From IMG/VR virus record IMGVR_UViG_2778261395_000003: a stretch of DNA of 12,090 bases. The stretch is one strand, 5' to 3'. Positions 1 to 12,090 of this stretch are shown in pieces (the first letter of the stretch is position 1; every line of letters starts with the position of its first letter). The translations under genes were made by a program, and so were the position numbers. This DNA is from a virus. Lineage: Duplodnaviria; Heunggongvirae; Uroviricota; Caudoviricetes. The notes below the pieces were generated by a model that saw only the letters and a list, made by a program, of their open reading frames with translations, was not told the origin of the DNA and searched no databases.

Positions 1-318
1 ATGAAAAAGATAGCTGCTATATCATTAATTAGTATTTTTATTATGTCTGGTTGTGCTGTGCATAATGATGAGACAAGTATCGGTAAATTTGGTCTTGCAT
101 ATAAAAGTAATATTCAGCGTAAACTCGATAACCAATACTACACCGAAGCCGAAGCTTCTTTAGCCAGGGGTAGAATATCTGGTGCAGAAAATATAGTAAA
201 AAATGATGCAACTCATTTCTGTGTTACTCAGGGCAAAAAAATGCAAATAGTTGAGCTGAAGACAGAAGGTGTAGGATTACATGGTGTCGCTCGTCTGACA
301 TTCAAATGTGGAGAGTGA
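1..318 (+). CDS. yegR: Small lipoprotein (105 aa), host flanking gene, YegR-like
   Basis: Complete ORF with ATG at 1. N-terminal hydrophobic signal followed by lipobox-like M-S-G-C. Size and position next to the P2 remnant and yegQ match what I recall of E. coli yegR. GC content is host-like. Confidence 0.6.
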   Translation: MKKIAAISLISIFIMSGCAVHNDETSIGKFGLAYKSNIQRKLDNQYYTEAEASLARGRISGAENIVKNDATHFCVTQGKKMQIVELKTEGVGLHGVARLTFKCGE

Positions 319-477
319 GAATATTTTTTGGTAAGCGTCAAATATGCGCGTTCTGGCTGTGCGTAGCCGGAACCTGTGGGAGCACGATGCCGATAAGTGA
401 AAGGCATCGTGCTATGAAGGAGGATTCTATCGATGTGGTCAATGGAAGACGGTTACCAGAGATAGGGCTTATGCATA

Positions 478-504
478 AAAAAATAAGCCCGTGTAAGGGA
501 GATT
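478..504. repeat. attL core: 27-bp direct repeat AAAAAATAAGCCCGTGTAAGGGAGATT, identical to 10558-10584
   Basis: Exact 27-bp identity seen at both ends of the element. It lies immediately beyond the 3' end of the int gene, as expected for a P2-type attachment site. The length matches the 27-bp P2 core as I recall it. Confidence 0.75.
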
Positions 505-583
505 TAGGGTGTCACCAGTAGGGGCTTTCAACGGTACAATGCGGGTTTGAGCGGCATAAATTACCACTGAAAGCCCTTAAACG

Positions 584-1597
584 TTACTCTACTGTGGACA
601 CTGTGTGGACACTCTCGACCTCAGTACCACCTCTTAGCGGATTAAGAGAAATGGCGTCCTGAAGGTACTCTGGCGCAAAATGAGCGTAAACCATAGTTTG
701 CTCAATCCGCGTGTGACCTAGTATCCGTTGTAGCGTGATAATACTTCCTCCATTAATCATGAAATGAGTGGCAAAGCTGTGCCTTAGTGCATGTGTAGCT
801 TGCCCCATTGGCAAATCCGGTTTTATTGCTTTCATTGTTCGTCTGAAGCGAGGGTAATCAGCATCAGGGAATAAAAAACCTCGTTTGTTATCCGCGATCA
901 TTTTGGCAACAGCCTCTGAGATCGGGACGGTGCGTGGTTTGTTTGTTTTCGTTTTAACAAACGTGACGCGGTTATGGATGATATTTTCTGCTTTCAAACG
1001 AGCAGCTTCTCCCCAACGTGCTCCAGTACTCAGGCAAAGAATCGCAATCTTTTTGTTGTCGCCGTCAAGAGCAGCAAGCAGTAAGGCAATTTCTTCCTGC
1101 GTGAGATAGCCTGTGTCTGGTTTTTCCTCCTTAAGCCTTTTTGTCCCTCTGATAGGGTGCTCACCAAAGAATAACTCCGCTTCAATCAGGGCTGTAAACA
1201 TGCCGCTAATACATGTTAAATCACGATTGATACTCGAAGGTTTAATACCCTGACTTCTTCGGGTGGCGCAGTACTGGCTGATAAGCGATTTCGTAATTTG
1301 AAATGCGCATGGGTCATTCGTTATTTTTGTGAAGATTTCAATTTTTCCAAGATTAGATTTCCCATGCTCTTCGTGTTTACCCTTTAAATCCCACCAGATC
1401 TGTGTCAGCTCCGACAGACGTCGCTTGTCTGTTGGTTTTGATAGCCATTCTTTATTGTGGTGGTTGTACAACGTGTATTTCTCGAAAGCGACAGCTTCGC
1501 TTTTCTTATCAAACTTCCTACGGATGCGTTTTCCATTACGTCCAGTAGGGCGGATGTCCACTTCATATCGACCATCATCGAGTTTTTTGATTGCCAT
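584..1597 (-). CDS. int: Tyrosine integrase, P2 Int-like (337 aa)
   Basis: 337 aa, the size of P2 Int. C-terminal catalytic region contains R...HxLRHSFAT...LGH...Y (ATHALRHSFATHF, ILGHTRIEQTMVYAHF). GGAGGG Shine-Dalgarno upstream of the ATG. Sits adjacent to the att core and is co-oriented with the C repressor gene. Confidence 0.9.
   Translation of the reverse strand: MAIKKLDDGRYEVDIRPTGRNGKRIRRKFDKKSEAVAFEKYTLYNHHNKEWLSKPTDKRRLSELTQIWWDLKGKHEEHGKSNLGKIEIFTKITNDPCAFQITKSLISQYCATRRSQGIKPSSINRDLTCISGMFTALIEAELFFGEHPIRGTKRLKEEKPDTGYLTQEEIALLLAALDGDNKKIAILCLSTGARWGEAARLKAENIIHNRVTFVKTKTNKPRTVPISEAVAKMIADNKRGFLFPDADYPRFRRTMKAIKPDLPMGQATHALRHSFATHFMINGGSIITLQRILGHTRIEQTMVYAHFAPEYLQDAISLNPLRGGTEVESVHTVSTVE
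593..611. promoter_or_regulatory. Putative Int arm-type binding sites (P-prime arm): two direct TGTGGACA repeats 11 bp apart, inside the 3' end of int
   Basis: TGTGGACA at 593-600 and 604-611. A similar pair with the same spacing sits in the opposite arm at 10499-10517. The motif matches my recollection of the P2 Int arm-site consensus. Confidence 0.45.
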
Positions 1598-1712
1598 CAG
1601 AAAACCCTCCGAGTGGTGTGTTTTTTTGCGACTACTAATCGCTTTTTTCGTGGTGGCTGAAATTTAGCCACCAATAGTAGGCACTTGTGATGAATATATT
1701 CACGATGAATTG

Positions 1713-2012
1713 TTAACCAGTCTTTTGACCGGAGTGGGGCGACGTTGTTTCGTTTTGCCCAAAGTGTGCGAGAGCGGGCGCAATTTGCCCGGACTCAGGA
1801 GCGATCTGATTGGTCATGAACCATAAAGTGTATTTGGTGAATTGTGGGGTCTGCAGGATGTTCATCATGACATCTGTTGGAGGTGTTGAACGACCACTTT
1901 CATAGTAACTCAGCGTGCCATACGGAACCCCTGTTAAATCAGCAAGTTGTTGTCTGCTCAAATACTCTGATTTTCGCATTAAGACTATCTTCTCGCTTAT
2001 CGTGTTTGACAT
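1713..2012 (-). CDS. C: Immunity repressor, P2 C-like (99 aa)
   Basis: 99 aa, the size of P2 C. Divergent from cox across a 114-bp switch region carrying direct repeats. The N-terminal segment QQLADLTGVPYGTLSYYESG looks like a helix-turn-helix. Confidence 0.85.
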   Translation of the reverse strand: MSNTISEKIVLMRKSEYLSRQQLADLTGVPYGTLSYYESGRSTPPTDVMMNILQTPQFTKYTLWFMTNQIAPESGQIAPALAHFGQNETTSPHSGQKTG

Positions 2013-2046
2013 GGTGTTTAGATCTCAATAGTATTTAGTTTAGATG
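2006..2046 (+). promoter_or_regulatory. Early promoter Pe with flanking C-repressor operator half-sites (O1/O2)
   Basis: TTGACA (2006-2011) and TAGTAT (2029-2034) are separated by 17 bp. The direct repeat TTTAGAT at 2017-2023 and 2039-2045 (22 bp centre to centre) flanks the -10. A perfect TATAAT on the minus strand at 2084-2089 would give a convergent Pc with about 35 nt of transcript overlap. Confidence 0.6.
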
Positions 2047-2126
2047 TAGATTGTTTAGTGCTTGGATGTGGGCACTAAAAGGCATTATAAGACATTAAAC
2101 GCAATTCATGAGGGCTAGAGGACGAC

Positions 2127-2402
2127 ATGAGCAAGCAAGTAACACTCATGACTGATGCGATTCCTTATCAGGAGTTCGCAAAACTAATAGGAAAATCGAC
2201 AGGAGCGGTTCGTCGGATGATCGATAAAGGAAAGCTGCCTGTAATTGATATGACCGATCCACAATCAGCTTCAGGTCGTGCAGGTGAATATTGGGTATAC
2301 CTTCCGGCATGGAATAACGGACTAAAACTGGCTTATGAAAGCCGCCCTAAAGAGATTCGTGACGGCTGGTTGATGTGGTTAGGTCTCGGTGAACCACGTT
2401 AA
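2127..2402 (+). CDS. cox: Cox-like excisionase / Pc repressor (91 aa)
   Basis: 91 aa, the size of P2 Cox. First gene of the rightward early operon, with a GAGG ribosome-binding site. Confidence 0.8.
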   Translation: MSKQVTLMTDAIPYQEFAKLIGKSTGAVRRMIDKGKLPVIDMTDPQSASGRAGEYWVYLPAWNNGLKLAYESRPKEIRDGWLMWLGLGEPR

Positions 2403-2412
2403 GGAGAACCGT

Positions 2413-2583
2413 ATGAATGAGCCTCGTTGTATTGCTCAGTTACTGCGTAACGAAAGCCCCAGGGCGATTGACTTCACCATCACCCACGGTAAGGGGCGTA
2501 AGGGAATCATTATCCGCACCAAAAAACAGAGTCCGTTAAAAAAGGCTCTGACCTTTCTGAAAAGCCGGAGGGTATGGAAATGA
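2413..2583 (+). CDS. Small basic hypothetical protein in the P2 orf78 position (56 aa)
   Basis: ATG at 2413 is preceded by AAGGAG (2401-2406) at ideal spacing. The longer track ORF starting at 2389 has no ribosome-binding site. Lys/Arg-rich. Confidence 0.55.
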   Translation: MNEPRCIAQLLRNESPRAIDFTITHGKGRKGIIIRTKKQSPLKKALTFLKSRRVWK

Positions 2584-3080
2584 CAGTGATGACGCTCAAT
2601 CTCGTTGAAAAACAGCCAGCAGCTATGCGCCGGATAATTGGCAAGCATCTTGCCGTCCCTCGCTGGCAGGATACATGTGATTATTATAATCAGATGATGG
2701 AGCGCGAACGGCTAACGGTTTGCTTTCATGCACAGTTAAAACAGCGTCACGCAACGATGCGTTTTGAAGAAATGAACGACGTCGAACGTGAACGACTGGT
2801 TTGTGCAATTGATGAATTGCGTGGCGCATTCTCAAAACGCCGTCAGGTTGGTGCAAGTGAGTATGCATATATTAGTTTTTTAACAGTCAGTCAGCGTCGC
2901 ACTTTATTTATGCACGCACGACTGACTGAAAAAGAATTCAACCAGCCATACTGGCGAATTAATGAAGAATCATGTTACTGGCGTGATGCTTTGTTCCGTG
3001 CATTACGTGAATTATTCAGCATGTTTGAGTATGCACCGACAATTCTGACGTCGGTAAAACCAGAGCAATATCTGCATTAA
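2580..3080 (+). CDS. B: Replication protein B-like (166 aa from ATG 2580)
   Basis: Position between cox and A. 166 aa from the ATG at 2580, the size of P2 B. GGAGG at 2566-2570 favours 2580 over 2574. Confidence 0.75.
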   Translation: MTVMTLNLVEKQPAAMRRIIGKHLAVPRWQDTCDYYNQMMERERLTVCFHAQLKQRHATMRFEEMNDVERERLVCAIDELRGAFSKRRQVGASEYAYISFLTVSQRRTLFMHARLTEKEFNQPYWRINEESCYWRDALFRALRELFSMFEYAPTILTSVKPEQYLH

Positions 3081-3143
3081 ATAATTAACCAGAGTTTTTA
3101 ACGCACTTAATCGTGCGGGGCTTCTTTTTGCCTGGAGAAAGTC

Positions 3144-3368
3144 ATGCATACAGTTTCTGAAAATCAGTGCGGTATATACGCATTACTGCTGCAACAGGCC
3201 AGAACCGAAGCACAGGCCGACGCTGCGACGCGCTTTTCTTCTCATCTTGACGCCATGATTCGCCACATCACAAAGGCGGAGTTATCCCGCGTGGAGATAG
3301 TCGAGCTGCTCAGTCAGGAGTCGGAAAAATTTCACAATATCGGATTGTCTCGCGGGGAGGTGCTTTGA
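3144..3368 (+). CDS. Hypothetical early protein (74 aa), P2 orf80 position
   Basis: ORF with GGAGAAA ribosome-binding site. First of four tightly packed, overlapping small ORFs between B and A. Confidence 0.55.
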
Positions 3369-3670
3369 TGTCCTGTTCTCGTTCAGTTGTATTACTGAAT
3401 AACGCCTTAAAAATCGCCGTTATGAAAAATGGCGATTTATCTCTTATTCAACTTGGTCTTGATAAAGAAAAACGCGAAATAACTGAGTCTGTTATCGCGA
3501 TTTATCAGAACGAATTAAATCTCCTGTCTGATGTGGTCAATTTACTTGTTAAACGCGCTGTATTTCACAAGCAAATCTCCTCCGTGGATGAACTGACGAA
3601 GTTAACGACAGAAATTGCCAGCTATTGCGCTGATGAATTTAAGAAACTGAACGACAAAAGGAACTGGTAA
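3368..3670 (+). CDS. Hypothetical early protein (100 aa), P2 orf81 position
   Basis: ATG at 3368 overlaps the upstream TGA (TGATG), with GGGGAGG 9 nt upstream. The track's TTG start at 3365 is less likely. Confidence 0.55.
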   Translation: MSCSRSVVLLNNALKIAVMKNGDLSLIQLGLDKEKREITESVIAIYQNELNLLSDVVNLLVKRAVFHKQISSVDELTKLTTEIASYCADEFKKLNDKRNW

Positions 3671-3894
3671 TGCCGGACAACGTAGATTTCATTCAGGAAC
3701 AACAGGCTGAATTACTGGAGCGCCAGATTAACGCGGCAAGGGTAAAACATAGCGGTGTTTCTGCGCTGGTTTGCGAAGAGTGTGACGCGCTAATACCTGC
3801 TGCCCGTCGTGCGGCTTATCCGTCAGCCACGCGTTGTGTTTCCTGTCAGTCAGTCTTTGAAGCAAAAAACAAACATTACCGGAGAACGGCATGA
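3670..3894 (+). CDS. DksA/TraR-type C4 zinc-finger protein (74 aa), P2 orf82 position
   Basis: CEEC-x17-CVSC (C-x2-C-x17-C-x2-C) is the spacing of the zf-dksA/traR family. Start overlaps the upstream stop (TAATG). Confidence 0.6.
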   Translation: MPDNVDFIQEQQAELLERQINAARVKHSGVSALVCEECDALIPAARRAAYPSATRCVSCQSVFEAKNKHYRRTA

Positions 3895-4166
3895 GTATTC
3901 GTATTGAAATTGGCGAACGTTATGTCGTTACCAGTGACAGCTTTCAGTTTATTCTCCACGAGAAAAAGAGAGCGGAAAGCGGTAAAAACGCCGGTCAGGA
4001 ATGGCTGGCGGTGGTTGGTTATTACCCGAAATTAAGCCAGCTCGTTTCCGGCCTGATGCATCACGATATTCTGACCGGAAGCGCAAAGTCTTTTGCTGAT
4101 TTAAACGCGCAGGTTGAGCAACTCAGCAGGCGTTGTTCAGAGGCTTTGGGCTCATATGGCCGTTAA
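3891..4166 (+). CDS. Hypothetical early protein (91 aa), P2 orf83 position
   Basis: ATGA overlap with the upstream gene. Its end overlaps the A start, indicating translational coupling. Confidence 0.55.
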   Translation: MSIRIEIGERYVVTSDSFQFILHEKKRAESGKNAGQEWLAVVGYYPKLSQLVSGLMHHDILTGSAKSFADLNAQVEQLSRRCSEALGSYGR

Positions 4167-6423
4167 AGCCTCCGGGCGTTTTGTCCCTCCGTCAGCATTT
4201 GCCGCAGGCATCGGTAAGACGTTTACCGGTGCTTATGCATGGAACGCGCCACGCGAGGCTGTCGGGCGCGAAAGACCCCTTACACGTGACGAGATGCGTC
4301 AGGTGCAAGGTGTTTTATCCACGATTAACCGCCTGCCTTACTTTTTGCGCTCGCTGTTTACTTCACGCTATGACTACATCCGGCGCAATAAAAGCCCGGT
4401 GCACGGGTTTTATTTCCTCACATCCACTTTTCAGCGTCGTTTATGGCCGCGCATTGAGCGTGTGAATCAGCGCCATGAAATGAACACCGACGCGTCGTTG
4501 CTGTTTCTGGCAGAGCGTGACCACTATGCGCGCCTGCCGGGAATGAATGACAAGGAGCTGAAAAAGTTTGCTGCCCGTATCTCATCGCAGCTATTCATGA
4601 TGTATGAGGAACTCTGCGATGCCTGGGTGGATGCGCATGGCGAAAAAGAATCACTGTTTACGGATGAGGCGCAGGCGCATCTGTATGGTCATGTTGCTGG
4701 CGCTGCGCGTGCTTTCAATATTTCTCCACTTTTCTGGAAAAAATACCGTAAAGGACAGATGACCACGAGGCAGGCATATTCTGCCATTGCCCGTCTGTTT
4801 AACGATGAGTGGTGGATTAATCAGCTTAAAGGCCAGCGTATGCGCTGGCATGAGGCATTACTGATTGCTGTCGGGGAGGTGAATAAAGACCGTTCTCCTT
4901 ATGCCAGTAAACATGCCATTCGTGATGTACGTGCACGCCGCCAGGCAAATCTGGAGTTTCTTAAATCGTGTGATCTCGAAAACAAGGAAACCGGCGAACG
5001 CATTGACCTTATCAGTAAGGTGATGGGAAGCATTTCTAATCCTGAAATTCGCCGTATGGAACTGATGAACACCATCGCCGGTATTGAGCGTTACGCCGCC
5101 GCAGAGGGTGATGTGGGGATGTTTATCACGCTGACCACGCCGTCAAAGTATCACCCGACACGTCAGGTCAGAAAAGGCGAAAGTAAAACCGTCCAGCTAA
5201 ATCACGGCTGGAACGATGAGGCATTTAATCCAAAGGATGCGCAGCGTTATCTCTGCCGTATCTGGAGCCTGATACGCACGGCATTCAAGGATAATGATTT
5301 ACAGGCCTACGGTTTGCGTGTTGTTGAACCACACCACGACGGAACGCCGCACTGGCATATGATGCTTTTTTGTAATCCACGCCAGCGTAACCAGATTATT
5401 GAAATCATGCGTCGCTATGCGCTCAAAGAGGATGGCGACGAAAGAGGAGCCGCGCGAAACCGTTTTCAGGCAAAACATCTTAACCGGGGCGGTGCTGCGG
5501 GGTATATCGCAAAATACATCTCAAAAAACATCGATGGCTATGCACTGGATGGTCAGCTCGATAATGATACCGGCAGGCCGCTGAAAGATACTGCTGCGGC
5601 TGTTACCGCATGGGCGTCAACGTGGCGAATTCCGCAATTTAAAACGATTGGCCTGCCGACAATGGGGGCTTACCGTGAACTACGCAAATTGCCTCGCGGC
5701 GTCAGTATTGCTGATGAGTTTGACGAACGCGTCGAGGCTGCTCGCGCTGCCGCAGACAGTGGTGATTTTGCGTTGTATATCAGCGCGCAGGGTGGGGCAA
5801 ATGTCCCGCGCGATTGTCAGACTGTCAGGGTTGCCCGTAGCCCGTCGGATGACGTTAACGAGTACGAGGAAGAAGTCGAGAGAGTGGTCGGCATTTACGC
5901 GCCGCATCTCGGCGCGCGTCATATTCATATCACCAGAACGACGGACTGGCGCATTGTGCCGAAAGTTCCGGTCGTTGAGCCTTTGACTTTAAAAAGCGGC
6001 ATCGCCGCGCCTCGGAGTCCTGTCAATAACTGTGGAAAGGTCACCGGTTGTGATACTTCGTTACCGGCTCCCACACCTTCTGAGCACGCCGCAGCAGTGC
6101 TTAATCTGGTTGATGACGGTGTTATCGAATGGAATGACCCGGAGGTTGTGAGGGCGCTCAGGGGCGCATTAAAACACGGCCTGAGAACGCCAAATCGTCA
6201 GCAAAGAAACGGAAGCTCGTTAAAACCACATGAAATTGCACCATCGGCCAGACTGACCCGGTCGGAAAGAATGCAAATTACCCGTATCCGCGTTGACCTT
6301 GCTCAGAACGGTATCAGGCCGCAGCGATGGGAGCTTGAGGCGTTGGCGCGCGGGGCAACAGTAATTTATGACGGTGAGCGGTTTAGTTATGCTGTAAAAG
6401 ACGATTGGGTGATGTTTTCTTAA
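4156..6423 (+). CDS. A: Rolling-circle replication initiator, P2 gpA / phiX174 gpA superfamily
   Basis: HUH motif H-W-H-M-M-L at 5350-5367. Paired catalytic tyrosines in Y-I-A-K-Y-I-S-K (Y codons at 5503-5505 and 5515-5517), resembling the phiX174 A active site. Start placed at ATG 4156; the track's TTG at 4114 has no spacer after its Shine-Dalgarno-like sequence. Confidence 0.9.
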   Translation: MAVKASGRFVPPSAFAAGIGKTFTGAYAWNAPREAVGRERPLTRDEMRQVQGVLSTINRLPYFLRSLFTSRYDYIRRNKSPVHGFYFLTSTFQRRLWPRIERVNQRHEMNTDASLLFLAERDHYARLPGMNDKELKKFAARISSQLFMMYEELCDAWVDAHGEKESLFTDEAQAHLYGHVAGAARAFNISPLFWKKYRKGQMTTRQAYSAIARLFNDEWWINQLKGQRMRWHEALLIAVGEVNKDRSPYASKHAIRDVRARRQANLEFLKSCDLENKETGERIDLISKVMGSISNPEIRRMELMNTIAGIERYAAAEGDVGMFITLTTPSKYHPTRQVRKGESKTVQLNHGWNDEAFNPKDAQRYLCRIWSLIRTAFKDNDLQAYGLRVVEPHHDGTPHWHMMLFCNPRQRNQIIEIMRRYALKEDGDERGAARNRFQAKHLNRGGAAGYIAKYISKNIDGYALDGQLDNDTGRPLKDTAAAVTAWASTWRIPQFKTIGLPTMGAYRELRKLPRGVSIADEFDERVEAARAAADSGDFALYISAQGGANVPRDCQTVRVARSPSDDVNEYEEEVERVVGIYAPHLGARHIHITRTTDWRIVPKVPVVEPLTLKSGIAAPRSPVNNCGKVTGCDTSLPAPTPSEHAAAVLNLVDDGVIEWNDPEVVRALRGALKHGLRTPNRQQRNGSSLKPHEIAPSARLTRSERMQITRIRVDLAQNGIRPQRWELEALARGATVIYDGERFSYAVKDDWVMFS

Positions 6424-6506
6424 ACTGATGGCATCATGATACATTAACAAATCTGAAGCAATGCTTTAGTAGTCGTGCATTAATAACTTATAAGGAATTA
6501 TTATCG

Positions 6507-7829
6507 ATGAGTGCGTTAAGGGATGAAGTATCTATGAAGGTTGCGTTCTCTAATGGCATGATAAACAAATTATGCAAAAGTTTTTTTTATAGTCATGGTA
6601 AGGAGCAGCCTTGTATCCAAGTCGGTAAAGCATTAGAAGATTTTGTTTTTTGGCTTGCATATAATGATGAGGAGATTGCAAAATGTGCTAGTAGGTTATT
6701 AAAAGCATATGGCCCCCAATTAGGTATAAGTGACCTTCACAATGCGAAAAGATTATTGTTAGGTTTTTGTTCTGAAGCCTTCAATCGCATTGATGCTGAT
6801 TTTCTGTCGCTTAATCCTGATAAGATTTGTGTTGATGATATTATAACGCAAGTTCATAGAAAAAATCTTAGTGAGATGTTTAAGTATTATATACTTTCAC
6901 GAATAAAATCCTGTCCGTATATTTATAATCTTGGGTGTGCTGGCTTTGATGGGAAGCTTGAGCTTAGAGAAAATTTATTTTTATATGGCCCGGGGCTAGG
7001 GGTGGAATTAATTTCTGATATTAAAGACAAAACTGACATCAAGGTTCCTGTTGATTTTTATGATGATGAATATATGCGGCATAAACCAATTGGGAAATAT
7101 TTTCGACAGTCAAAATCCTGCTTGGTGGTGGCATATGCTTCATCAGAGGATAAAGCGGTGAAAATGTTTGATAGTTTGTTTGGAGCTTTATGTCTTGCGG
7201 TTGATAATCCTTTTGCGATTAATCGAGTTGCTGTTAATAATCTAGTTGAGTCTTTTGGTGTCGGGAAATATCATGAAAGTGAGTTTCGGGTGAATATTCC
7301 GTCTGTATATAATTTAAATATAACGGATTCAGCCTTGGCGATACTTACAAAAATACTTTCATCACCTGATAAAAGGATGTTGTCTGCTCTTTCCTTTATA
7401 GCGCACGGGTGGAGGGATGACAAACGTGAAAGGTTTTTGAATCAATTTATAGCATTGGATGCTATGTATGGAACCAATAATGGTAATAAAAATTCAATTA
7501 TTGGCGGTGTTTGCAGAGATGCGGCGAAAATTATTGATATTGATTCAAAAATAGGAATAATCTATGAGCTTAGGTGTAAGTTTGTTCATGGAGATATTTC
7601 ATCGTTATCTGATAATGATAGCTATCGAAAGTTTATTGATAGCTATGGCGTGGACCCTATTGTTTCTCTTTTTGAAATTCTTAAAGAATGCGTCCTTAAT
7701 TATAATGGTACTTACAAAACGCCAAAAGATGTTGGAAAGGCAGATAGGTCTATTTGCGTTCCTGCTGAGTTGCTTCCAGCGGTTGAGAGGATGATAGCGG
7801 AATACAGTGGAGTTAAAAAAACAAACTAA
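6507..7829 (+). CDS. AT-rich orphan cargo protein (440 aa); candidate defence or abortive-infection effector with an R-x4-H motif
   Basis: Long ORF with AAGGAA ribosome-binding site 9 nt upstream. GC is about 25-35 percent against about 55 percent in the adjacent A gene. Occupies the A-to-cos slot. No Walker A motif. C-terminal YELRCKFVHGD contains R-x4-H (R codon 7572-7574, H codon 7587-7589). Confidence 0.75.
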   Translation: MSALRDEVSMKVAFSNGMINKLCKSFFYSHGKEQPCIQVGKALEDFVFWLAYNDEEIAKCASRLLKAYGPQLGISDLHNAKRLLLGFCSEAFNRIDADFLSLNPDKICVDDIITQVHRKNLSEMFKYYILSRIKSCPYIYNLGCAGFDGKLELRENLFLYGPGLGVELISDIKDKTDIKVPVDFYDDEYMRHKPIGKYFRQSKSCLVVAYASSEDKAVKMFDSLFGALCLAVDNPFAINRVAVNNLVESFGVGKYHESEFRVNIPSVYNLNITDSALAILTKILSSPDKRMLSALSFIAHGWRDDKRERFLNQFIALDAMYGTNNGNKNSIIGGVCRDAAKIIDIDSKIGIIYELRCKFVHGDISSLSDNDSYRKFIDSYGVDPIVSLFEILKECVLNYNGTYKTPKDVGKADRSICVPAELLPAVERMIAEYSGVKKTN

Positions 7830-7970
7830 AGATGTTCTTTTTAGCCTCGCCTGCATTAGGTGCATAAATTTGCATTCATTTTCAAATATATCTTTTGACA
7901 GCGAGCACCAGAACAGGCGCTTGCCGGGGGGATGATGCACCTGCATTAAAACCGCCCCATGAAGCGGGCG

Positions 7971-7989
7971 GGCGAGGCGGGGAAAGCAC
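7971..7989. other. cos site: 19-nt P2/P4-type cohesive-end sequence GGCGAGGCGGGGAAAGCAC
   Basis: Exact match to the P2/P4 cohesive-end sequence as I recall it. It sits in a GC-rich non-coding island (about 7895-8040) between two AT-rich blocks, at the position expected between the A side and Q. Confidence 0.65.
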
Positions 7990-8122
7990 TGCGCGCAATG
8001 ATGTCAGTTTGAGGGCATCAGGCATGGGGACACTACACAGTTTCATTTTTGTTATTAATTGTTTATCATATAAGTGTTTGTTTTTTGAACGGCATGTCGT
8101 GTGCTATATGGAGTGAATAGAA

Positions 8123-8392
8123 GTGACTAAATTTGACAAAAAAAAAGCAATTTCTATTTTAACAGAAAAAAAAGCCTTGCTCCCATGTCATCGGTGTGGA
8201 AATTCAAAGTTCATCATTTTGGATGGCATATCATCACTTCCATTAATGGAAAATATGGAAATGATTGGTAGTATTGTTGTTGGCGGAATGAATGCTCCTG
8301 TATTACATGTGGCATGTGAGAATTGTGGTGCAGTTACTTCACATTTGCTTGGGGCACTTGGTTTAATGCCGGAGATTAAATCAAATGACTAA
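8123..8392 (+). CDS. Small zinc-ribbon protein (89 aa), first gene of a two-gene cargo module
   Basis: GTG start with GGAG 8 nt upstream. Two C-x2-C pairs (CHRCG and CENCG) about 40 residues apart. AT-rich. Overlaps the next gene by 8 nt. Confidence 0.6.
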   Translation: MTKFDKKKAISILTEKKALLPCHRCGNSKFIILDGISSLPLMENMEMIGSIVVGGMNAPVLHVACENCGAVTSHLLGALGLMPEIKSND

Positions 8393-8855
8393 GGGTGTTT
8401 TTTTCTCTGATGAAGGTAGTGGTAAAAAAAGTGCTGTCTTGCATGGGGCGCAGGTTACAATAAACCCTGATTCGCAATTTACAAAAAAGATAATTAGGCA
8501 GACTGAGGTTGATGTTATTGTGATAAGTGATGATAAACTTCATATAATTTTGACGAATTGCTTATCTAAAATTGCATCATTAAACCGCTGGTCAACACCT
8601 TTGGGTATTTTAATTACCTTGGCGGTAACTATGTTAACCACAAATTTTAAGAATTTTATTCTTCAGGATTCTGTGTGGGAGGCTGTTTTCTGGATGCTTA
8701 TTTTTTTTAATATTATCTGGTTGGTGAAAAACATTCCATATAGACACTTATTTTTAACTGTTTGTCATTCTATAGGGGTTCGTAAAGATAAAAAAAGAAT
8801 TAGTGATGTATACCACATTATAGATATAATTAAACAAGGTGATACACGCTTTTGA
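8385..8855 (+). CDS. Small membrane protein (156 aa) with two predicted transmembrane helices, second gene of the cargo module
   Basis: Two hydrophobic stretches (WSTPLGILITLAVTMLTT and AVFWMLIFFNIIWLV) after a roughly 65-aa soluble N-terminal region. ATG overlaps the upstream gene's end. AT-rich. Confidence 0.65.
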   Translation: MTKGVFFSDEGSGKKSAVLHGAQVTINPDSQFTKKIIRQTEVDVIVISDDKLHIILTNCLSKIASLNRWSTPLGILITLAVTMLTTNFKNFILQDSVWEAVFWMLIFFNIIWLVKNIPYRHLFLTVCHSIGVRKDKKRISDVYHIIDIIKQGDTRF

Positions 8856-8888
8856 TTTAATATCAATATTTGATTGAGTATATAATAA

Positions 8889-8911
8889 AGCCGCCTGAGT
8901 TTATGGCGGCT
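8889..8911 (-). terminator. Hairpin downstream of the Q remnant, possible intrinsic terminator
   Basis: 7-bp GC-rich stem AGCCGCC/GGCGGCT with a 9-nt loop. On the minus strand it is followed by UUUAUUAUAU, immediately 3' of the Q stop. Confidence 0.4.
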
Positions 8912-8931
8912 AATATAGGGTGTGTGCTAAG

Positions 8932-9936
8932 TCATAATGTGTATTTGTTGAATCTAATTATTTCTTCGCCAACCCATTCATTAAGGGCAATAAAGCGAGA
9001 TTGAATAGGAGTAAGCTCATTGCGGACAAAGACCTTTGCCACTTTCTCAATATCACCCAGCGACCCGACGTTCTCCGGCTTGCCGCCCATCAACTGAAAG
9101 GGGATGCGGTGCGCGTCCAGCAGGTCAGCGGCGCTGGCTTTTTTGATATTAAAAAAATCGTCCTTCGTTGCCACTTCACTGAGCGGGATAATTTTAATGC
9201 CGTCGGCTTTCCCTTGCGGGGCATAGAGAAACAAATTTTTAAAGTTGTTGCGGCCTTTCGACTTCACCATGTTTTCGCGAAGCATTTCGATATCGTTGCG
9301 ATCCTGCACGGCATCGGTGACATACATGATGTATCCGGCATGAGCGCCGTTTTCGTAATACTTGCGGCGGAACAGCGTGGCCGACTCATTCAGCCAGGCA
9401 GAGTTAAGGGCGCTGAGATATTCCGGCAGGCCGTACAGCTCCTGATTGATATCCGGCTCCAGCAGGTGAAACACGGAGCCGGGCGCGAAGGCTGTCGGCT
9501 CGTTGAAGGACGGCACCCACCAGTAAACATCCTCCTCCACGCCACGGCGGGTATATTTTGCCGGTGAGGTTTCCAGTCTGATGACCTTACCGGTGGTGCT
9601 GTAACGCTTTTCCAGAAACGCATTACCGAACACCAGAAAATCCAGCACAAAGCGGCTGAAATCCTGCTGGGAAAGCCACGGATGCGGGATAAATGTCGAG
9701 GCCAGAATATTGCGTTTGACGTAAATCGGCGAGCTGTGATGCACGGCAGCACGCAGGCTTTTCGCCAGACCGGTAAAGCGAAACCGGTCACGCAGAAGAA
9801 AGCGCCAAAAGTACCGGAAGCGCGCGAAGGTGAATACATGGCCGGTGAGGCTGACAACGTTTTTGCCCTGACCACGGTATATGCCACGAAAGCGCAGGCC
9901 ATGCGCGCCGCTCAGGCGAAGTGGGACAAACTGCAA
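8932..9936 (-). pseudogene. Q: Portal protein gpQ-like remnant, N-terminally truncated and fused to antisense D sequence
   Basis: The C-terminal roughly 250 aa look like genuine protein. The first roughly 80 codons are R/F-rich low-complexity sequence lying antisense to the D-fragment frame, so the true 5' part of Q is probably missing. Confidence 0.7.
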
Positions 9937-10155
9937 CGGGGCGTCGCGGAGTTCTCCATCAGCCTGGCTACCGGTCGGGCTGATATTTACACGGAAACAC
10001 CGGTTAAAGTGTCAGGCTTTAAGCGCGTCATAGACGAGCAGGACTGGACAATCACTAAGGTGACACATTTTCTGAATAATAGCGGCTTCACGACGTCCTT
10101 AGAGCTTGAGGTCAGGCTTTCTGATGTGGAGTACGAAACAGAAGATTATGAGTGA
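9682..10155 (+). pseudogene. D: 3' fragment of tail gene D (gpD C-terminal region); yegZ-like remnant
   Basis: The C-terminal sequence (VSGFKRVIDEQDWTITKVTHFLNNSGFTTSLELEV) matches the conserved end of P2 gpD-family proteins as I recall it. The ORF is far too short for a full D (about 387 aa) and sits directly upstream of ogr. The first in-frame ATG within the clearly D-like part is at 9838. Confidence 0.7.
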
Positions 10156-10236
10156 TGTCTTTTGTTTATCTGTTTGTTTTGTAAGGATAAATTAACTAAA
10201 ATGGCACTATCAACAAAACCGGAAGAGGTGCTCGCG

Positions 10237-10455
10237 ATGTTTCATTGTCCTTTATGCCAGCATGCCGCACATGCGCGTACAAGCCGCTATATCACTGACA
10301 CGACAAAAGAGCGTTATCACCAGTGTCAGAACGTGAATTGCAGCGCCACGTTCATCACCTATGAGTCGGTACAGAGATACATCGTGAAGCCGGGAGAAGT
10401 CCACGCCGTAAGGCCGCACCCGTTGCCGTCAGGGCAGCAAATTATGTGGATGTAA
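10237..10455 (+). CDS. ogrK: Ogr-type zinc-finger late-gene transcription activator (72 aa)
   Basis: C-x2-C-x22-C-x4-C (CPLCQ ... CQNVNC) zinc-binding motif. 72 aa from ATG 10237. Last gene before attR and followed by a strong intrinsic terminator. Confidence 0.85.
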   Translation: MFHCPLCQHAAHARTSRYITDTTKERYHQCQNVNCSATFITYESVQRYIVKPGEVHAVRPHPLPSGQQIMWM

Positions 10456-10467
10456 TTAGAAACAGGA

Positions 10468-10493
10468 AGCCCCTCAGTCGAGGGGCTTTTTTT
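10468..10493 (+). terminator. Rho-independent terminator of ogr
   Basis: 8-bp stem AGCCCCTC/GAGGGGCT with a 4-nt loop, followed by seven T residues. Confidence 0.7.
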
Positions 10494-10498
10494 GTCGA

Positions 10499-10517
10499 TG
10501 TGGTCAATGTGTGGACG
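10499..10517. promoter_or_regulatory. Putative Int arm-type sites (P arm): TGTGGTCA and TGTGGACG, 11 bp apart
   Basis: Same motif family and spacing as the pair at 593-611. A near-consensus IHF-like site (TTTCAATTTGTTG, 10540-10552) lies between these and the core. Confidence 0.4.
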
Positions 10518-10557
10518 TGAACAGAAATAAATCCTTTTATTTCAATTTGTTGTACGT

Positions 10558-10584
10558 AAAAAATAAGCCCGTGTAAGGGAGATT
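10558..10584. repeat. attR core: 27-bp direct repeat identical to 478-504, overlapping the 3' end of cyaR
   Basis: Exact identity with 478-504. Coincides with the terminator and U-tract of the sRNA gene. Confidence 0.75.
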
Positions 10585-10644
10585 ACACAGGCTAAGGAGG
10601 TGGTTCCTGGTACAGCTAGCATTTTATGGGTTATGTTTTTCAGC
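10558..10644 (-). ncRNA. cyaR: CyaR (RyeE) Hfq-dependent small RNA, 87 nt
   Basis: The minus-strand sequence GCUGAAAAACAUAACCCAUAAAAUGCUAGCUGUACCAGGAACCACCUCCUUAGCCUGUGUAAUCUCCCUUACACGGGCUUAUUUUUU matches CyaR as I recall it. It contains the CCUCCUUAG anti-Shine-Dalgarno-like seed and a terminal hairpin (CCUGUGUAA / UUACACGGG) with a U-tract. Located between yegQ and ogrK as in E. coli. Confidence 0.85.
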
Positions 10645-10694
10645 GAAACGGATGATAACCTTAATAAATGCAGCTGTATGTGATCGGTTTCTAA
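10645..10694 (-). promoter_or_regulatory. cyaR promoter with candidate class II CRP site
   Basis: TGTGA-N6-TCTAA (10679-10694) is centred about 42 bp upstream of the inferred transcription start at 10644. A TATCAT-like -10 lies at 10652-10657. CyaR is a known CRP-cAMP-activated sRNA. Confidence 0.4.
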
Positions 10695-10728
10695 GAATTT
10701 TCCATCCGGGAAAAATAATCGAAATTAA

Positions 10729-12090
10729 TCACTTACCGTGTGGGTTACGCGTGGTTTCCCCGGAGAAATTACGCATCAGCAGAGCGTAATTGAGCTCAAG
10801 ATCCTGCGGGACCGGGAGCCACACAGTATAACCATCGCCTGGTGCGACCGGCATCGCTTCACCTTTGGCGTTTTCCATGTGCTCAAGGGTAAAGTTAATG
10901 TTGCCTTGCGGCGTCATCAGCTCAAGGCTGTCGCCAACGGAGAATTTATTTTTCACCGCTACCGCCGCGAGGTCCCCCTTGCGCTCACCGGTAAACTCAC
11001 CAACAAACTGCTGGCGGTCAGAAACTGAATAACCGTATTCGTAGTTCTGATAATCGTCGTGAGTATGACGACGCAGGAAACCTTCGGTATAGCCACGATG
11101 CGCCAGACCTTCCAGAGTTTCCAGCAGGCTGGTATCGAACGGTTTGCCCGCAGCGGCGTCATCGATAGCTTTACGGTAAACCTGTGCGGTGCGTGCGCAA
11201 TAGTAGAAAGATTTAGTACGGCCTTCGATTTTCAGCGAATGCACGCCCATTTTGGTCAGGCGTTCTACATGGGCGATGGCGCGCAGATCTTTCGAGTTCA
11301 TGATGTAAGTGCCGTGCTCATCTTCAAACGCGGTCATATACTCGCCCGGACGCTGGGCTTCTTCGATCATAAACACTTTGTCGGTTGGCGCGCCGATACC
11401 CAGCGTCGGCTCAACATTTTGCACCGGAATCGGCTCGTACTTGTGTACGATGTTGCCAACGTCATCTTCTTTCCCTTCCTGGACGTTGTACTCCCAGCGG
11501 CAGGCGTTGGTGCAGGTACCCTGGTTCGGATCGCGCTTGTTGATATAGCCAGAGAGCAGGCAGCGACCGGAGTAGGCCATGCACAGTGCGCCGTGAACGA
11601 AGATCTCGATCTCCATATCCGGCACCTGATTGCGGATCTCTTCAATCTCTTCCAGCGACAGCTCGCGAGAGAGGATCACGCGGGTCAGGCCCATTTGCTG
11701 CCAGAATTTCACCGTCGCCCAGTTTACGGCGTTAGCCTGCACCGAGAGGTGGATCGGCATTTCAGGGAAGTGCTCACGCACCAGCATAATCAGCCCTGGA
11801 TCGGACATAATCAGCGCATCCGGCCCCATTTCCACCACCGGTTTCAGGTCACGGATAAAGGTTTTCAGCTTGGCGTTGTGCGGTGCAATGTTGACCACGA
11901 CATAAAACTTTTTCCCCAGCGCGTGGGCTTCATTGATGCCGAGCTGAAGATTTTCGTGGTTGAATTCGTTGTTGCGCACACGCAGGGAGTAACGCGGCTG
12001 GCCCGCATAAACAGCATCTGCGCCATAAGCGAAAGCGTAACGCATATTTTTCAGCGTTCCCGCCGGGGAAAGGAGTTCCGGTTTAAACAT
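10729..12090 (-). CDS. yegQ: Peptidase U32 family protein YegQ/RlhA (453 aa, complete)
   Basis: Contains the U32 signature E-x-F-x2-G-[SA]-[LIVM]-C-x4-G-x-C-x-[LIVM]-S (EIFVHGALCMAYSGRCLLS). The ATG is the last codon of the window on the minus strand. Host-like GC content. Confidence 0.9.
   Translation of the reverse strand: MFKPELLSPAGTLKNMRYAFAYGADAVYAGQPRYSLRVRNNEFNHENLQLGINEAHALGKKFYVVVNIAPHNAKLKTFIRDLKPVVEMGPDALIMSDPGLIMLVREHFPEMPIHLSVQANAVNWATVKFWQQMGLTRVILSRELSLEEIEEIRNQVPDMEIEIFVHGALCMAYSGRCLLSGYINKRDPNQGTCTNACRWEYNVQEGKEDDVGNIVHKYEPIPVQNVEPTLGIGAPTDKVFMIEEAQRPGEYMTAFEDEHGTYIMNSKDLRAIAHVERLTKMGVHSLKIEGRTKSFYYCARTAQVYRKAIDDAAAGKPFDTSLLETLEGLAHRGYTEGFLRRHTHDDYQNYEYGYSVSDRQQFVGEFTGERKGDLAAVAVKNKFSVGDSLELMTPQGNINFTLEHMENAKGEAMPVAPGDGYTVWLPVPQDLELNYALLMRNFSGETTRNPHGK

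Follow-up and report, generated by a model that had tools for sequence, protein, structure and literature searches.

A small P2 prophage at the locI site of one Escherichia coli clone is probably a young defective remnant that retains int, cox, B, A, ogr and cos

Introduction

Escherichia coli K-12 carries a P2 remnant of about 1 kb (yegZ/D' - ogrK) at the yegR-yegQ site, which contains a D' fragment, the ogr gene and attR and lacks int, C, cox, B, A, cos and cargo. The ogr copy of K-12 is functional, and in K-12-type records the yegR flank runs into D'. Satellite P4 represents a widespread, conserved lineage with sid, psu, epsilon, the alpha primase and an immunity system of its own. Lambda dv, the f1 miniphage and defective interfering genomes are viral genomes reduced to replication and packaging functions, which arise and spread during active viral growth. 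Closer to P2, defective elements with conserved defence genes have been described, raising the question of domestication versus continued exchange (PMC13586616, NAR 2026), and in that survey the replication gene was the core gene most often pseudogenised (PMC13586616). Sp13 of O157 Sakai, a P2-like prophage lacking most morphogenetic genes, is excised, amplified and packaged at low level with help from other prophages, and its authors proposed a P4 epsilon-like gene as the cause of its inducibility (PMC2669165). Finally, cosmids with P4/P2 cos show that circular DNA carrying only cos is packaged by P2 proteins in trans (PMC9942202).

Here we describe an element that shares the site, the D' fragment, ogr and attR with the K-12 remnant but keeps 9.3 kb of left-end sequence. 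It resembles P4 in size (about 10-12 kb), in the absence of structural genes and in having a cos core of about 55 bp, a tyrosine integrase and an activator of the Ogr/Delta family. However, it lacks the P4 genes named above and is a deletion product of the helper genome itself, found in one clone. Unlike lambda dv, the f1 miniphage and defective interfering genomes, it is silent in the chromosome and shows no sign of spread in the collections searched. In contrast to the surveyed defective P2 elements, its A gene is intact; an epsilon-like gene as in Sp13 was not found in it. The cosmids are engineered multicopy plasmids packaged by a derepressed cos-deleted helper, whereas this element is a repressed single-copy chromosomal insert. 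We conclude that it is very probably a young defective (cryptic) P2 prophage at the P2 locI site of a single E. coli clone.

Results

Overall anatomy

Within the window, i.e., the whole stretch of 12,090 nucleotides that was analysed, positions 478-10584 represent a P2 prophage inserted between yegR and cyaR/yegQ, the classical site of P2. A duplicated 27-bp core, AAAAAATAAGCCCGTGTAAGGGAGATT, flanks the element at the P2 att site as a perfect direct repeat. Including both cores the element measures 10,107 bp, and the excised circle is predicted to be 10,080 bp long. On the P2 map it consists of three colinear blocks and one microhomology junction. The early region (window 478-6374) corresponds to P2 24356-30252 and retains the int-C-cox-B-A order of P2 in a gap-free alignment of 5,897 bp with 97.6% identity. 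Complete late operons, as expected of a viable phage, were not found; the prophage is defective because P2 1050-23573 is missing. The anatomy proposed in a first-pass annotation (int/cox, B/A, ogr, cos and both att cores) is real by comparison with P2, and the size of about 10 kb that it had placed close to P4 agrees with the measured values, a circle of 10.08 kb versus 11.6 kb for P4.

Integration, immunity and regulation

The excision module had been described as retained, and indeed int and cox are intact and the arm, IHF and Cox sites have 0-1 mismatch each relative to P2. The features of this part are:

478-504: attL core, left prophage end, 27 bp, same sequence as the P2 attP core and the right-hand copy (10558-10584)
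521-594: Cox-binding sites, no mismatches to the annotated P2 sites
592-618: Int P' arm site, one mismatch to P2
584-1597, minus strand: int, intact tyrosine integrase of 337 aa (Pfam Int_N and Phage_integrase)
1713-2012, minus strand: C immunity repressor, 99 aa, 100% identical to P2 C
2006-2109: Pe/Pc switch with operators O1 and O2, no mismatches to P2
2127-2402, plus strand: cox, excision directionality factor and Pc repressor, 91 aa, 100% identical to P2 Cox
10174-10203, plus strand: ogr promoter, hexamers conserved
10237-10455, plus strand: ogr, 72 aa, protein 100% identical to P2 Ogr
10466-10490, plus strand: ogr terminator
10495-10522: Int P arm site, one mismatch to P2
10526-10559: IHF site, one mismatch to P2
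10558-10584: attR core, 27 bp, no mismatches to P2

Int differs from P2 Int by two amino acids (E161D and A327V) and by one from the Int of the full-length prophage in KE50, and Cox matches Pfam Phage_Cox with E = 5.5e-48. Because C and its operators are identical to those of P2, the element probably provides P2-type immunity, as had been suggested from the retention of C. The reading of ogr as a responder to late-gene activation has to be reversed, since Ogr itself activates the late genes, and the element has lost all four late-operon start/activator sites annotated in P2 (P, O, V, and F). A look-up of the ogr context returned full-length prophages only, at three chromosomal sites.

Replication genes, cos and cargo

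The rolling-circle replication module is likewise retained:

2413-4166, plus strand: orf78, B (2580-3080), orf80, orf81, orf82 and orf83, all open, 0-3 aa differences from P2
4156-6423, plus strand: A, rolling-circle replication initiator of 755 aa (Pfam Phage_GPA, E = 2.8e-121)
5989-6039: ori inside A, nick site near 6014, 51/51 identical to P2 29867-29917

The orf78 and orf80 proteins are 100% identical to their P2 counterparts, B carries three substitutions, and there are no internal stops. In A, the HUH block EPHHDGTPHWH and the YIAKYISK tyrosines are unchanged compared to P2, and the protein is as long as A of the full-length KE50 prophage; its last approximately 22 codons are unlike P2 because the hotspot boundary lies at 6374. 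For int and A, in which the first-pass annotation allowed for a loss-of-function mutation, the alignment with P2 shows intact sequences.

Downstream of A follow the cos site and two cargo modules:

6507-7829, plus strand: cargo 1, protein of 440 aa with a C-terminal HEPN-like domain, 35% GC
7942-7996: cos, of P2 type as in P4-like satellites, matching P2 33546-33593 plus 1-26
7997-9011, plus strand: cargo 2, 1-kb low-GC insert between cos and Q', absent from P2
8123-8392, plus strand: cargo 2 ORF of 89 aa with two CxxC pairs
8385-8855, plus strand: cargo 2 ORF of 156 aa with hydrophobic segments, overlapping the 8123-8392 ORF

The cos site contains the 19-nt cohesive end GGCGAGGCGGGGAAAGCAC at 7971-7989, and the whole block of about 55 bp common to P2 and P4 is preserved, which is consistent with the first-pass annotation's proposal of a cos kept for packaging in trans. 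cos does not adjoin Q; the low-GC insert with its two small ORFs lies between them. The cargo 2 segment also adjoins the portal gene in seven other complete genomes and gave weak family matches only, including phrog_32870. Searches of literature and databases returned no validated function for either cargo module; we regard both, the HEPN gene and the pair of small ORFs, as candidate, and probable, anti-phage genes.

The deletion and the parent prophage

A single deletion of 22.5 kb, covering P2 1050-23573, fused a fragment of the portal gene (Q') to a fragment of a tail gene (D'). The junction was read from overlapping BLAST segments and directly from both parental sequences, and its k-mer is CCAGACCGGTAAAGCGAAACCGGTCA.

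8932-9779, minus strand: Q' portal pseudogene, without the N-terminal 57 codons (RefSeq: incomplete)
9775-9779: deletion junction with the 5-bp microhomology AAAGC, P2 1049 joined to P2 23574
9775-10155, plus strand: D' tail-gene fragment, last 127 of 387 codons, within a chimeric ORF at 9682-10155

The P2-homologous part of Q' (window 9012-9779) corresponds to P2 282-1049 with 97.9% identity. Lost are P, O, N, M, L, X, Y, K, lysABC, R, S, V, W, J, I, H, G, fun(Z), FI, FII, E, T, and U. Every structural, terminase and lysis gene had been described as lost, but fragments of two genes, Q' and D', remain. An origin by reduction of a P2 genome, as had been proposed, is corroborated by strain KE50, where a full-length prophage occupies this site, measures about 30.7 kb and shares both the HEPN cargo and the 755-aa A protein with the element.

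Distribution of the junction

The search for the junction covered an exact protein look-up, the complete E. coli genomes and exact-pattern matching in other contigs. It was present in one of 5,426 complete E. coli genomes, the GF4 chromosome, and in three NCBI draft assemblies and three Logan assemblies from different runs. All copies occupy one locus, differ by 0-1 SNP across the window, with an additional 1-bp indel in one copy, and are embedded in chromosomal flanks that are 1-3 SNPs apart over 11-16 kb; the carriers therefore represent one clone. In the L009 copy, the HEPN gene is already split by an indel. The exact pattern gave no match in viral, species-representative genome, and metagenome collections, and a search of a plasmid collection for an autonomous or plasmid form found no reduced copy. 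The collections hold few close relatives of the carrier clone, which bounds what this absence of spread shows. Population evidence that the element spreads horizontally as a unit was not found in them.

P2 remnants at the same site

To count P2 remnants of up to 12 kb at this site, we used a query made of the two att junction pieces and an artificial filler that widens the joining distance. Prophage decay is frequent and takes varied forms at this site, where 812 genomes contain the int-side junction and 1,204 the ogr-side one. About 17 independent remnants of at most 12 kb reside here, including the GF4 element, which the census itself missed because the GF4 record starts inside the element. 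Only 4 of the approximately 17 have both an intact A and cos, whereas A is lost from 13; this loss was mapped in the six remnants that were analysed in detail and taken from the census feature list in the other seven. The layout with int, C, cox, B, A/ori, defence cargo, cos and ogr is represented by at least four independent examples at this one site, and two other junctions of such mini-P2 architecture that were tested both proved to be strain-specific singletons. As most small remnants lack A and often cos, the combination of int, replication genes, cos and ogr is one chance result of decay and no conserved design. Eight reduced elements mapped at the beginning had all contained the early region; this impression was reversed by the census and the sample was discounted, since it had been ranked by a query containing that region.

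Three remnants without cox-A keep the hotspot cargo, one of them with IS5 inserted in it, so that cargo retention is independent of the replication and mobility module. Many other remnants lack the cargo as well. Remnant spans form a continuum of 1.6-12.1 kb in the census, and the earlier sample reached 18 kb. Sizes of 10-12 kb as a product of selection for P4-sized capsids were therefore rejected; about 10 kb is a mere floor once the early region and the cargo are retained.

Discussion

We propose that the ancestor was a full-length P2-like prophage with a HEPN-type gene in the A-cos-Q defence hotspot, and that the 22.5 kb between Q and D would have been lost in one illegitimate-recombination event via the 5-bp microhomology. 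This event would have taken all head, terminase, lysis, and tail genes together with all four annotated late-operon promoter regions. The rest looks intact because the deletion is recent, an explanation that does not require purifying selection for mobility. At present, the element would serve as a fixed lysogenic-conversion island in which C keeps Pe shut, giving P2-class immunity, and in which ogr would be solitary, like ogrK in K-12. Upon derepression, excision by Int, Cox and IHF and replication by A on its own ori are probably still possible, and a P2-type terminase could cut the cos. Any such mobilisation would be accidental and inefficient, and would not be how the element persists. What speaks against a decay reading is that every gene and cis site for excision, replication and cos cleavage is sequence-intact, and that three units of the 10,080-bp circle add up to 30.2 kb, a length inside the range of the P2-like phage records that we found (28.9-34.8 kb).

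Alternatively, the deletion may have been fixed by positive selection, as it disarms the prophage and stabilises immunity and anti-phage cargo for the host, with the early region kept as a passenger. The persistence of cargo in several cox-A-less remnants fits such a domestication, as do the reported defective P2 elements with near-identical defence genes (PMC13586616) and the cargo proteins of the element itself, which differ from those of the full-length prophage by only 3 aa. However, with 0-1 SNP between copies the element is too young for a signature of selection, its HEPN gene is already disrupted in L009, and cargo is also gone from many remnants. We therefore regard positively selected domestication as a tentative explanation and a somewhat doubtful one.

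The first-pass annotation favoured a helper-dependent, satellite-like lifestyle, in which infection by a P2-type helper would lead to excision, replication from the element's own A and ori, cos cleavage by the helper terminase and packaging. Normal heads would then contain a trimer, or small heads a monomer in the presence of P4 Sid; the defence cargo would be spread in this way. All parts required for this are sequence-intact, the element lacks structural genes yet carries what is predicted to be the helper's packaging signal, and both its monomer, near P4 in length, and its trimer would be of suitable size. P2 packages cos-bearing plasmids (PMC9942202), Sp13 provides a precedent (PMC2669165), and the several immunity classes among P2-like coliphages (PMC3448106) mean that heteroimmune helpers with the same cos are available.

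On the other hand, the junction is confined to one clone, the two tested sibling architectures are singletons, A and often cos are lost from most small remnants, and searches of the complete GF4 genome found the Q/D and cos/cargo stretches only once. Comparison with P4 and scans with Pfam, PADLOC, NCBIfam, and PHROGs revealed no satellite-specific genes among the element proteins. We took sid, psu, delta, epsilon, the alpha primase, an alpA-type regulator and a P4-type integrase as the hallmarks of P4; by tblastn against P4, the element proteins matched only through Ogr and delta (E = 4e-11 and 1.5e-9), with no match to sid, psu, epsilon, alpha or the P4 integrase. Nor were the marks of PICIs found (an alpA/Stl regulator, pri-rep, and terS or capsid-morphogenesis genes), the Pfam matches being to P2 families (Phage_GPA, Phage_Cox, Ogr_Delta, HTH_3, and integrase). 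All ORFs are P2 genes or cargo without matches to a helper-sensing or helper-exploiting mechanism such as an anti-repressor, a repressor inactivated by the helper, capsid redirection or interference, which leaves no unexplained ORF able to sense a helper, although the two small cargo 2 ORFs may have a novel helper-related function. Since C is identical to P2 C, the best-matched helper, of the same immunity, would be repressed on entry. Because the A protein of P2 prefers to act in cis and derepressed P2 prophages are poor at excision, it is not obvious how a heteroimmune helper could set off replication of the element. Taken together, we consider a helper-dependent satellite very unlikely.

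That the contig is an assembly artefact or a chimera joining two prophage ends is a general possibility, to which the GF4 record lends a reason only by starting inside the element, and it can practically be dismissed, as the same junction occurs in the complete GF4 chromosome, three independent NCBI drafts and three Logan assemblies.

Read as a young defective prophage, the element is, as it stands, a further case of P2 decay at a site where remnants of this phage have long been known, and it has already been published that defective P2 elements retain defence genes. At this site, natural decay of P2 can be followed through a graded series of products, in which early and late regions are both deleted and cargo often survives. 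Because the element keeps all parts for mobilisation in trans, it would be a convenient natural substrate for tests of whether a helper genome can be reduced to a satellite. It is highly unlikely, in our judgement, that single-step reduction of P2 repeatedly yields mini-P2s of 10-12 kb that are occasionally mobilised by heteroimmune P2-like phages and thus represent nascent satellites, ferrying defence genes as trimers in normal heads or as monomers with P4-supplied Sid. If this were true, mini-P2s would give some insight into the origin of satellites from the helpers themselves.

Anatomy and origin of the element

The window covers the yegR-yegQ region of an E. coli chromosome and matches contig NNZA01000002.1 (GCA_002487245.1) at 100% identity. 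A single base separates it from the complete chromosome of GF4, a strain from chicken meat (Switzerland); the GF4 record begins within the element. BLAST comparison with phage P2 (NC_001895) revealed three colinear blocks.

Features of the window
1-318, yegR, flanking gene
478-504 and 10558-10584, att core, 27 bp, perfect direct repeat
478-6374, block 1 (P2 24356-30252), ungapped, 97.6%: attP core, int, C, cox, B, orf80-83, most of A
7942-7996, cos region, matches P2
7997-9011, insert, two overlapping ORFs: one of 89 aa (two CxxC pairs), one of 156 aa (hydrophobic segments; phrog_32870)
9012-9779, block 2 (P2 282-1049), part of portal gene Q
9775-10584, block 3 (P2 23574-24382), last part of D, ogr, and the left arm and core of attP
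10561-10646, minus strand, cyaR (CyaR/RyeE sRNA gene; Rfam, 100.7 bits), overlaps right att core
10729-12090, minus strand, yegQ/trhP, flanking gene

The fragments of portal gene Q and tail gene D (Q' and D') meet at 9775-9779 in a 5-bp microhomology, AAAGC, found in both parental sequences, a feature typical of deletion by one illegitimate-recombination event. At this site strain KE50 has a full-length prophage (~30.7 kb) whose 440-aa HEPN-type cargo gene is the same but for 3 aa differences and whose A is equally long; it therefore stands for the parent type of the element. Together, the colinear blocks, the microhomology junction and the KE50 prophage confirm the proposal of the first-pass annotation that the element arose by reduction of a P2 genome. 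The deletion also made a chimeric 157-aa ORF (9682-10155) with an antisense-Q-derived N-terminus followed by the last 127 codons of D; it is a "hypothetical protein" in RefSeq, and its exact sequence is a handy clone marker. At the right end, the attR core shares 24 bp with the 3' end of cyaR, and P2 integration therefore restores the end of this gene from phage sequence.

The proteins C, Cox, orf78, orf80, and Ogr are identical to those of P2. B has 3 substitutions and Int 2; one of the two in Int is shared with the full-length prophage, whereas the other (A327V, C-terminal tail) is not. A (755 aa) has intact HUH and tyrosine motifs. No base differs from P2 in the operators, Pe/Pc, the Cox sites or ori, and none of the Int arm and IHF sites has more than 1 mismatch. 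These BLAST, protein and site comparisons bear out the parts previously listed (int, cox, B, A, ogr, cos, att cores, C) apart from three corrections. Every structural gene had been considered lost; P2 interval 1050-23573 is indeed deleted, but fragments of Q and D are still there. cos is retained with the whole ~55-bp block common to P2 and P4, but a 1-kb insert with two small ORFs separates it from Q'; like P4, the window departs from P2 directly after this block. Finally, ogr had been taken to respond to late-gene activation, whereas Ogr is the activator; the four annotated late-operon start/activator sites (P, O, V, F) are all gone, since they lie within the deleted interval.

Cargo on either side of cos

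P2 homology stops at 6374, 67 nt short of the P2 A stop codon (window 6374-6423), so that the defence hotspot has its left boundary within the final ~22 codons of A. The other mapped elements lose homology at various points towards the 3' end of A (P2 29997-30315), for the most part within the last ~70 nt. On the Q side of cos, the insert forms a second cargo slot of 1 kb with ~33% GC and no counterpart in P2.

The cargo, which comprises candidate defence genes, is a mosaic. The HEPN-gene segment left of cos occurs in ~45 complete genomes among the matches listed. The two-ORF segment adjoins the portal gene in 7 other complete E. coli genomes, which pair it with different left-of-cos cargo (DUF7380 in most), and the combination of both segments was seen in GF4 only. 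cos therefore serves as a breakpoint for recombination, with the cargo segments on its two sides exchangeable independently of each other. In one member of the clone (Logan ERR11478669, 498-1819), a 1-bp indel cuts the HEPN gene into ORFs of 132 and 317 aa; thus, at least one copy already shows cargo decay.

Independent decay of P2 prophages at the same site

In a first sample, this site yielded eight further P2 elements that are likewise reduced (10.5-18 kb); all have different deletion junctions and cargo, and all eight keep the early region and cos. The favoured architecture that this might have suggested was rejected: the sample was biased because the ranking query itself held the early region. 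We replaced it by a census whose query joined two junction pieces (window 328-627 and 10435-10734) through artificial filler, and which ranks first any genome with int and ogr ends at most 11.7 kb apart, whatever lies between; 6 elements were mapped in detail. GF4 is invisible to this census because its record starts at gene A, dividing the prophage across the record origin. Many RefSeq E. coli chromosomes begin exactly at the first base of A (e.g., GF4, X14-3, AVS0343, AVS0155, LR-51, TUM13064, and NR2550, all with cargo at record position 2220), and window position 4156 is position 1 of NZ_CP172217.1. Possibly, genome-rotation software mistakes P2 gene A for a replicon start marker.

Including GF4, there are ~17 independent small remnants, and only four (the GF4 clone, H6/H5, FT130, and 18AR0366) have intact A and cos. 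The FT130 and 18AR0366 junctions are singletons too. The other 13 have lost cox-A, A-cos or nearly everything, several with IS insertions (loss of A established by mapping in 6 and from the feature list in 7). Hotspot cargo is kept despite cox-A loss in LR-28, 1218KP, and NMBU-W12E19, with an IS5 insertion in the cargo of the last. In these three, the deletion runs from the Pe/cox region (P2 ~25995-26198) to near the replication origin, ending twice at exactly P2 29940, 48 bp past the ori nick (29892), and once at 29785; A-initiated events in situ might account for the repeated endpoint. With the int-side junction in 812 genomes against 1,204 for the ogr-side junction, at least ~390 genomes have the ogr end only, like K-12. 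The pattern at this site is one of frequent, independent, short-lived decay, not of a conserved mobile lineage. A 2026 survey takes the same general view, with defective P2 elements retaining near-identical defence genes and the replication gene being the core gene most often pseudogenised (PMC13586616).

Distribution of the junction and possible mobilisation in trans

The first-pass annotation had raised the possibility that a P2-type helper mobilises the element in trans as a satellite, which we consider unlikely. A transmissible element is expected to turn up whole in two backgrounds or more, and this one is found in one. The junction-spanning ORF occurs on 10 contigs in a collection of 153 billion gene positions; the six places among the matches listed are all this same element, and the four reaching chromosomal flank are all at this locus. 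Against the window, the copies show 0-1 SNP (and in one case a 1-bp indel as well) and their chromosomal flanks 1-3 SNPs over 11-16 kb, indicating one clone. The junction is present in 1 of 5,426 complete E. coli genomes and was not found in exact-pattern scans of viral, species-representative genome and metagenome contig collections, nor was a reduced copy found in the plasmid collection. Large plasmids of Klebsiella, E. coli, Enterobacter, and Providencia (H236-H245; mostly ~204-216 kb, one 120 kb) contain a P2-like early region, reverse-transcriptase cargo and the portal gene.

Packaging itself is conceivable: P2 proteins package cos-bearing circles in trans (PMC9942202), a P2-sized head holds three P4 genomes, albeit inefficiently (PMC6893505), and the 30.2 kb of three element copies lies between the shortest and the longest of the P2-like phage records found. 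Moreover, Sp13, a morphogenesis-deficient P2-like prophage of O157 Sakai, is excised, amplified and weakly packaged (PMC2669165). However, protein comparison with P4 revealed no anti-repressor, helper sensor or capsid-size gene. Since C and the operators are identical to those of P2, a same-immunity helper would be shut down on entry, and growth would be possible only for virulent mutants or for heteroimmune relatives, which fall into several classes (PMC3448106). Each of the Q/D and cos/cargo stretches matched only once in the searches covering the complete GF4 genome; thus, GF4 has neither a closely related helper in residence nor a P4-type cos. The P2 A protein is preferentially cis-acting and derepressed P2 prophages excise poorly, which would leave a heteroimmune helper without an obvious way to start element replication.

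For an element whose junction is confined to one clone and which has no satellite-type genes, a satellite lifestyle lacks support and is improbable in the light of these comparisons. This is a recent, defective P2 prophage: as its retained C had suggested, it probably still confers P2 immunity, and it adds another case to this known kind.
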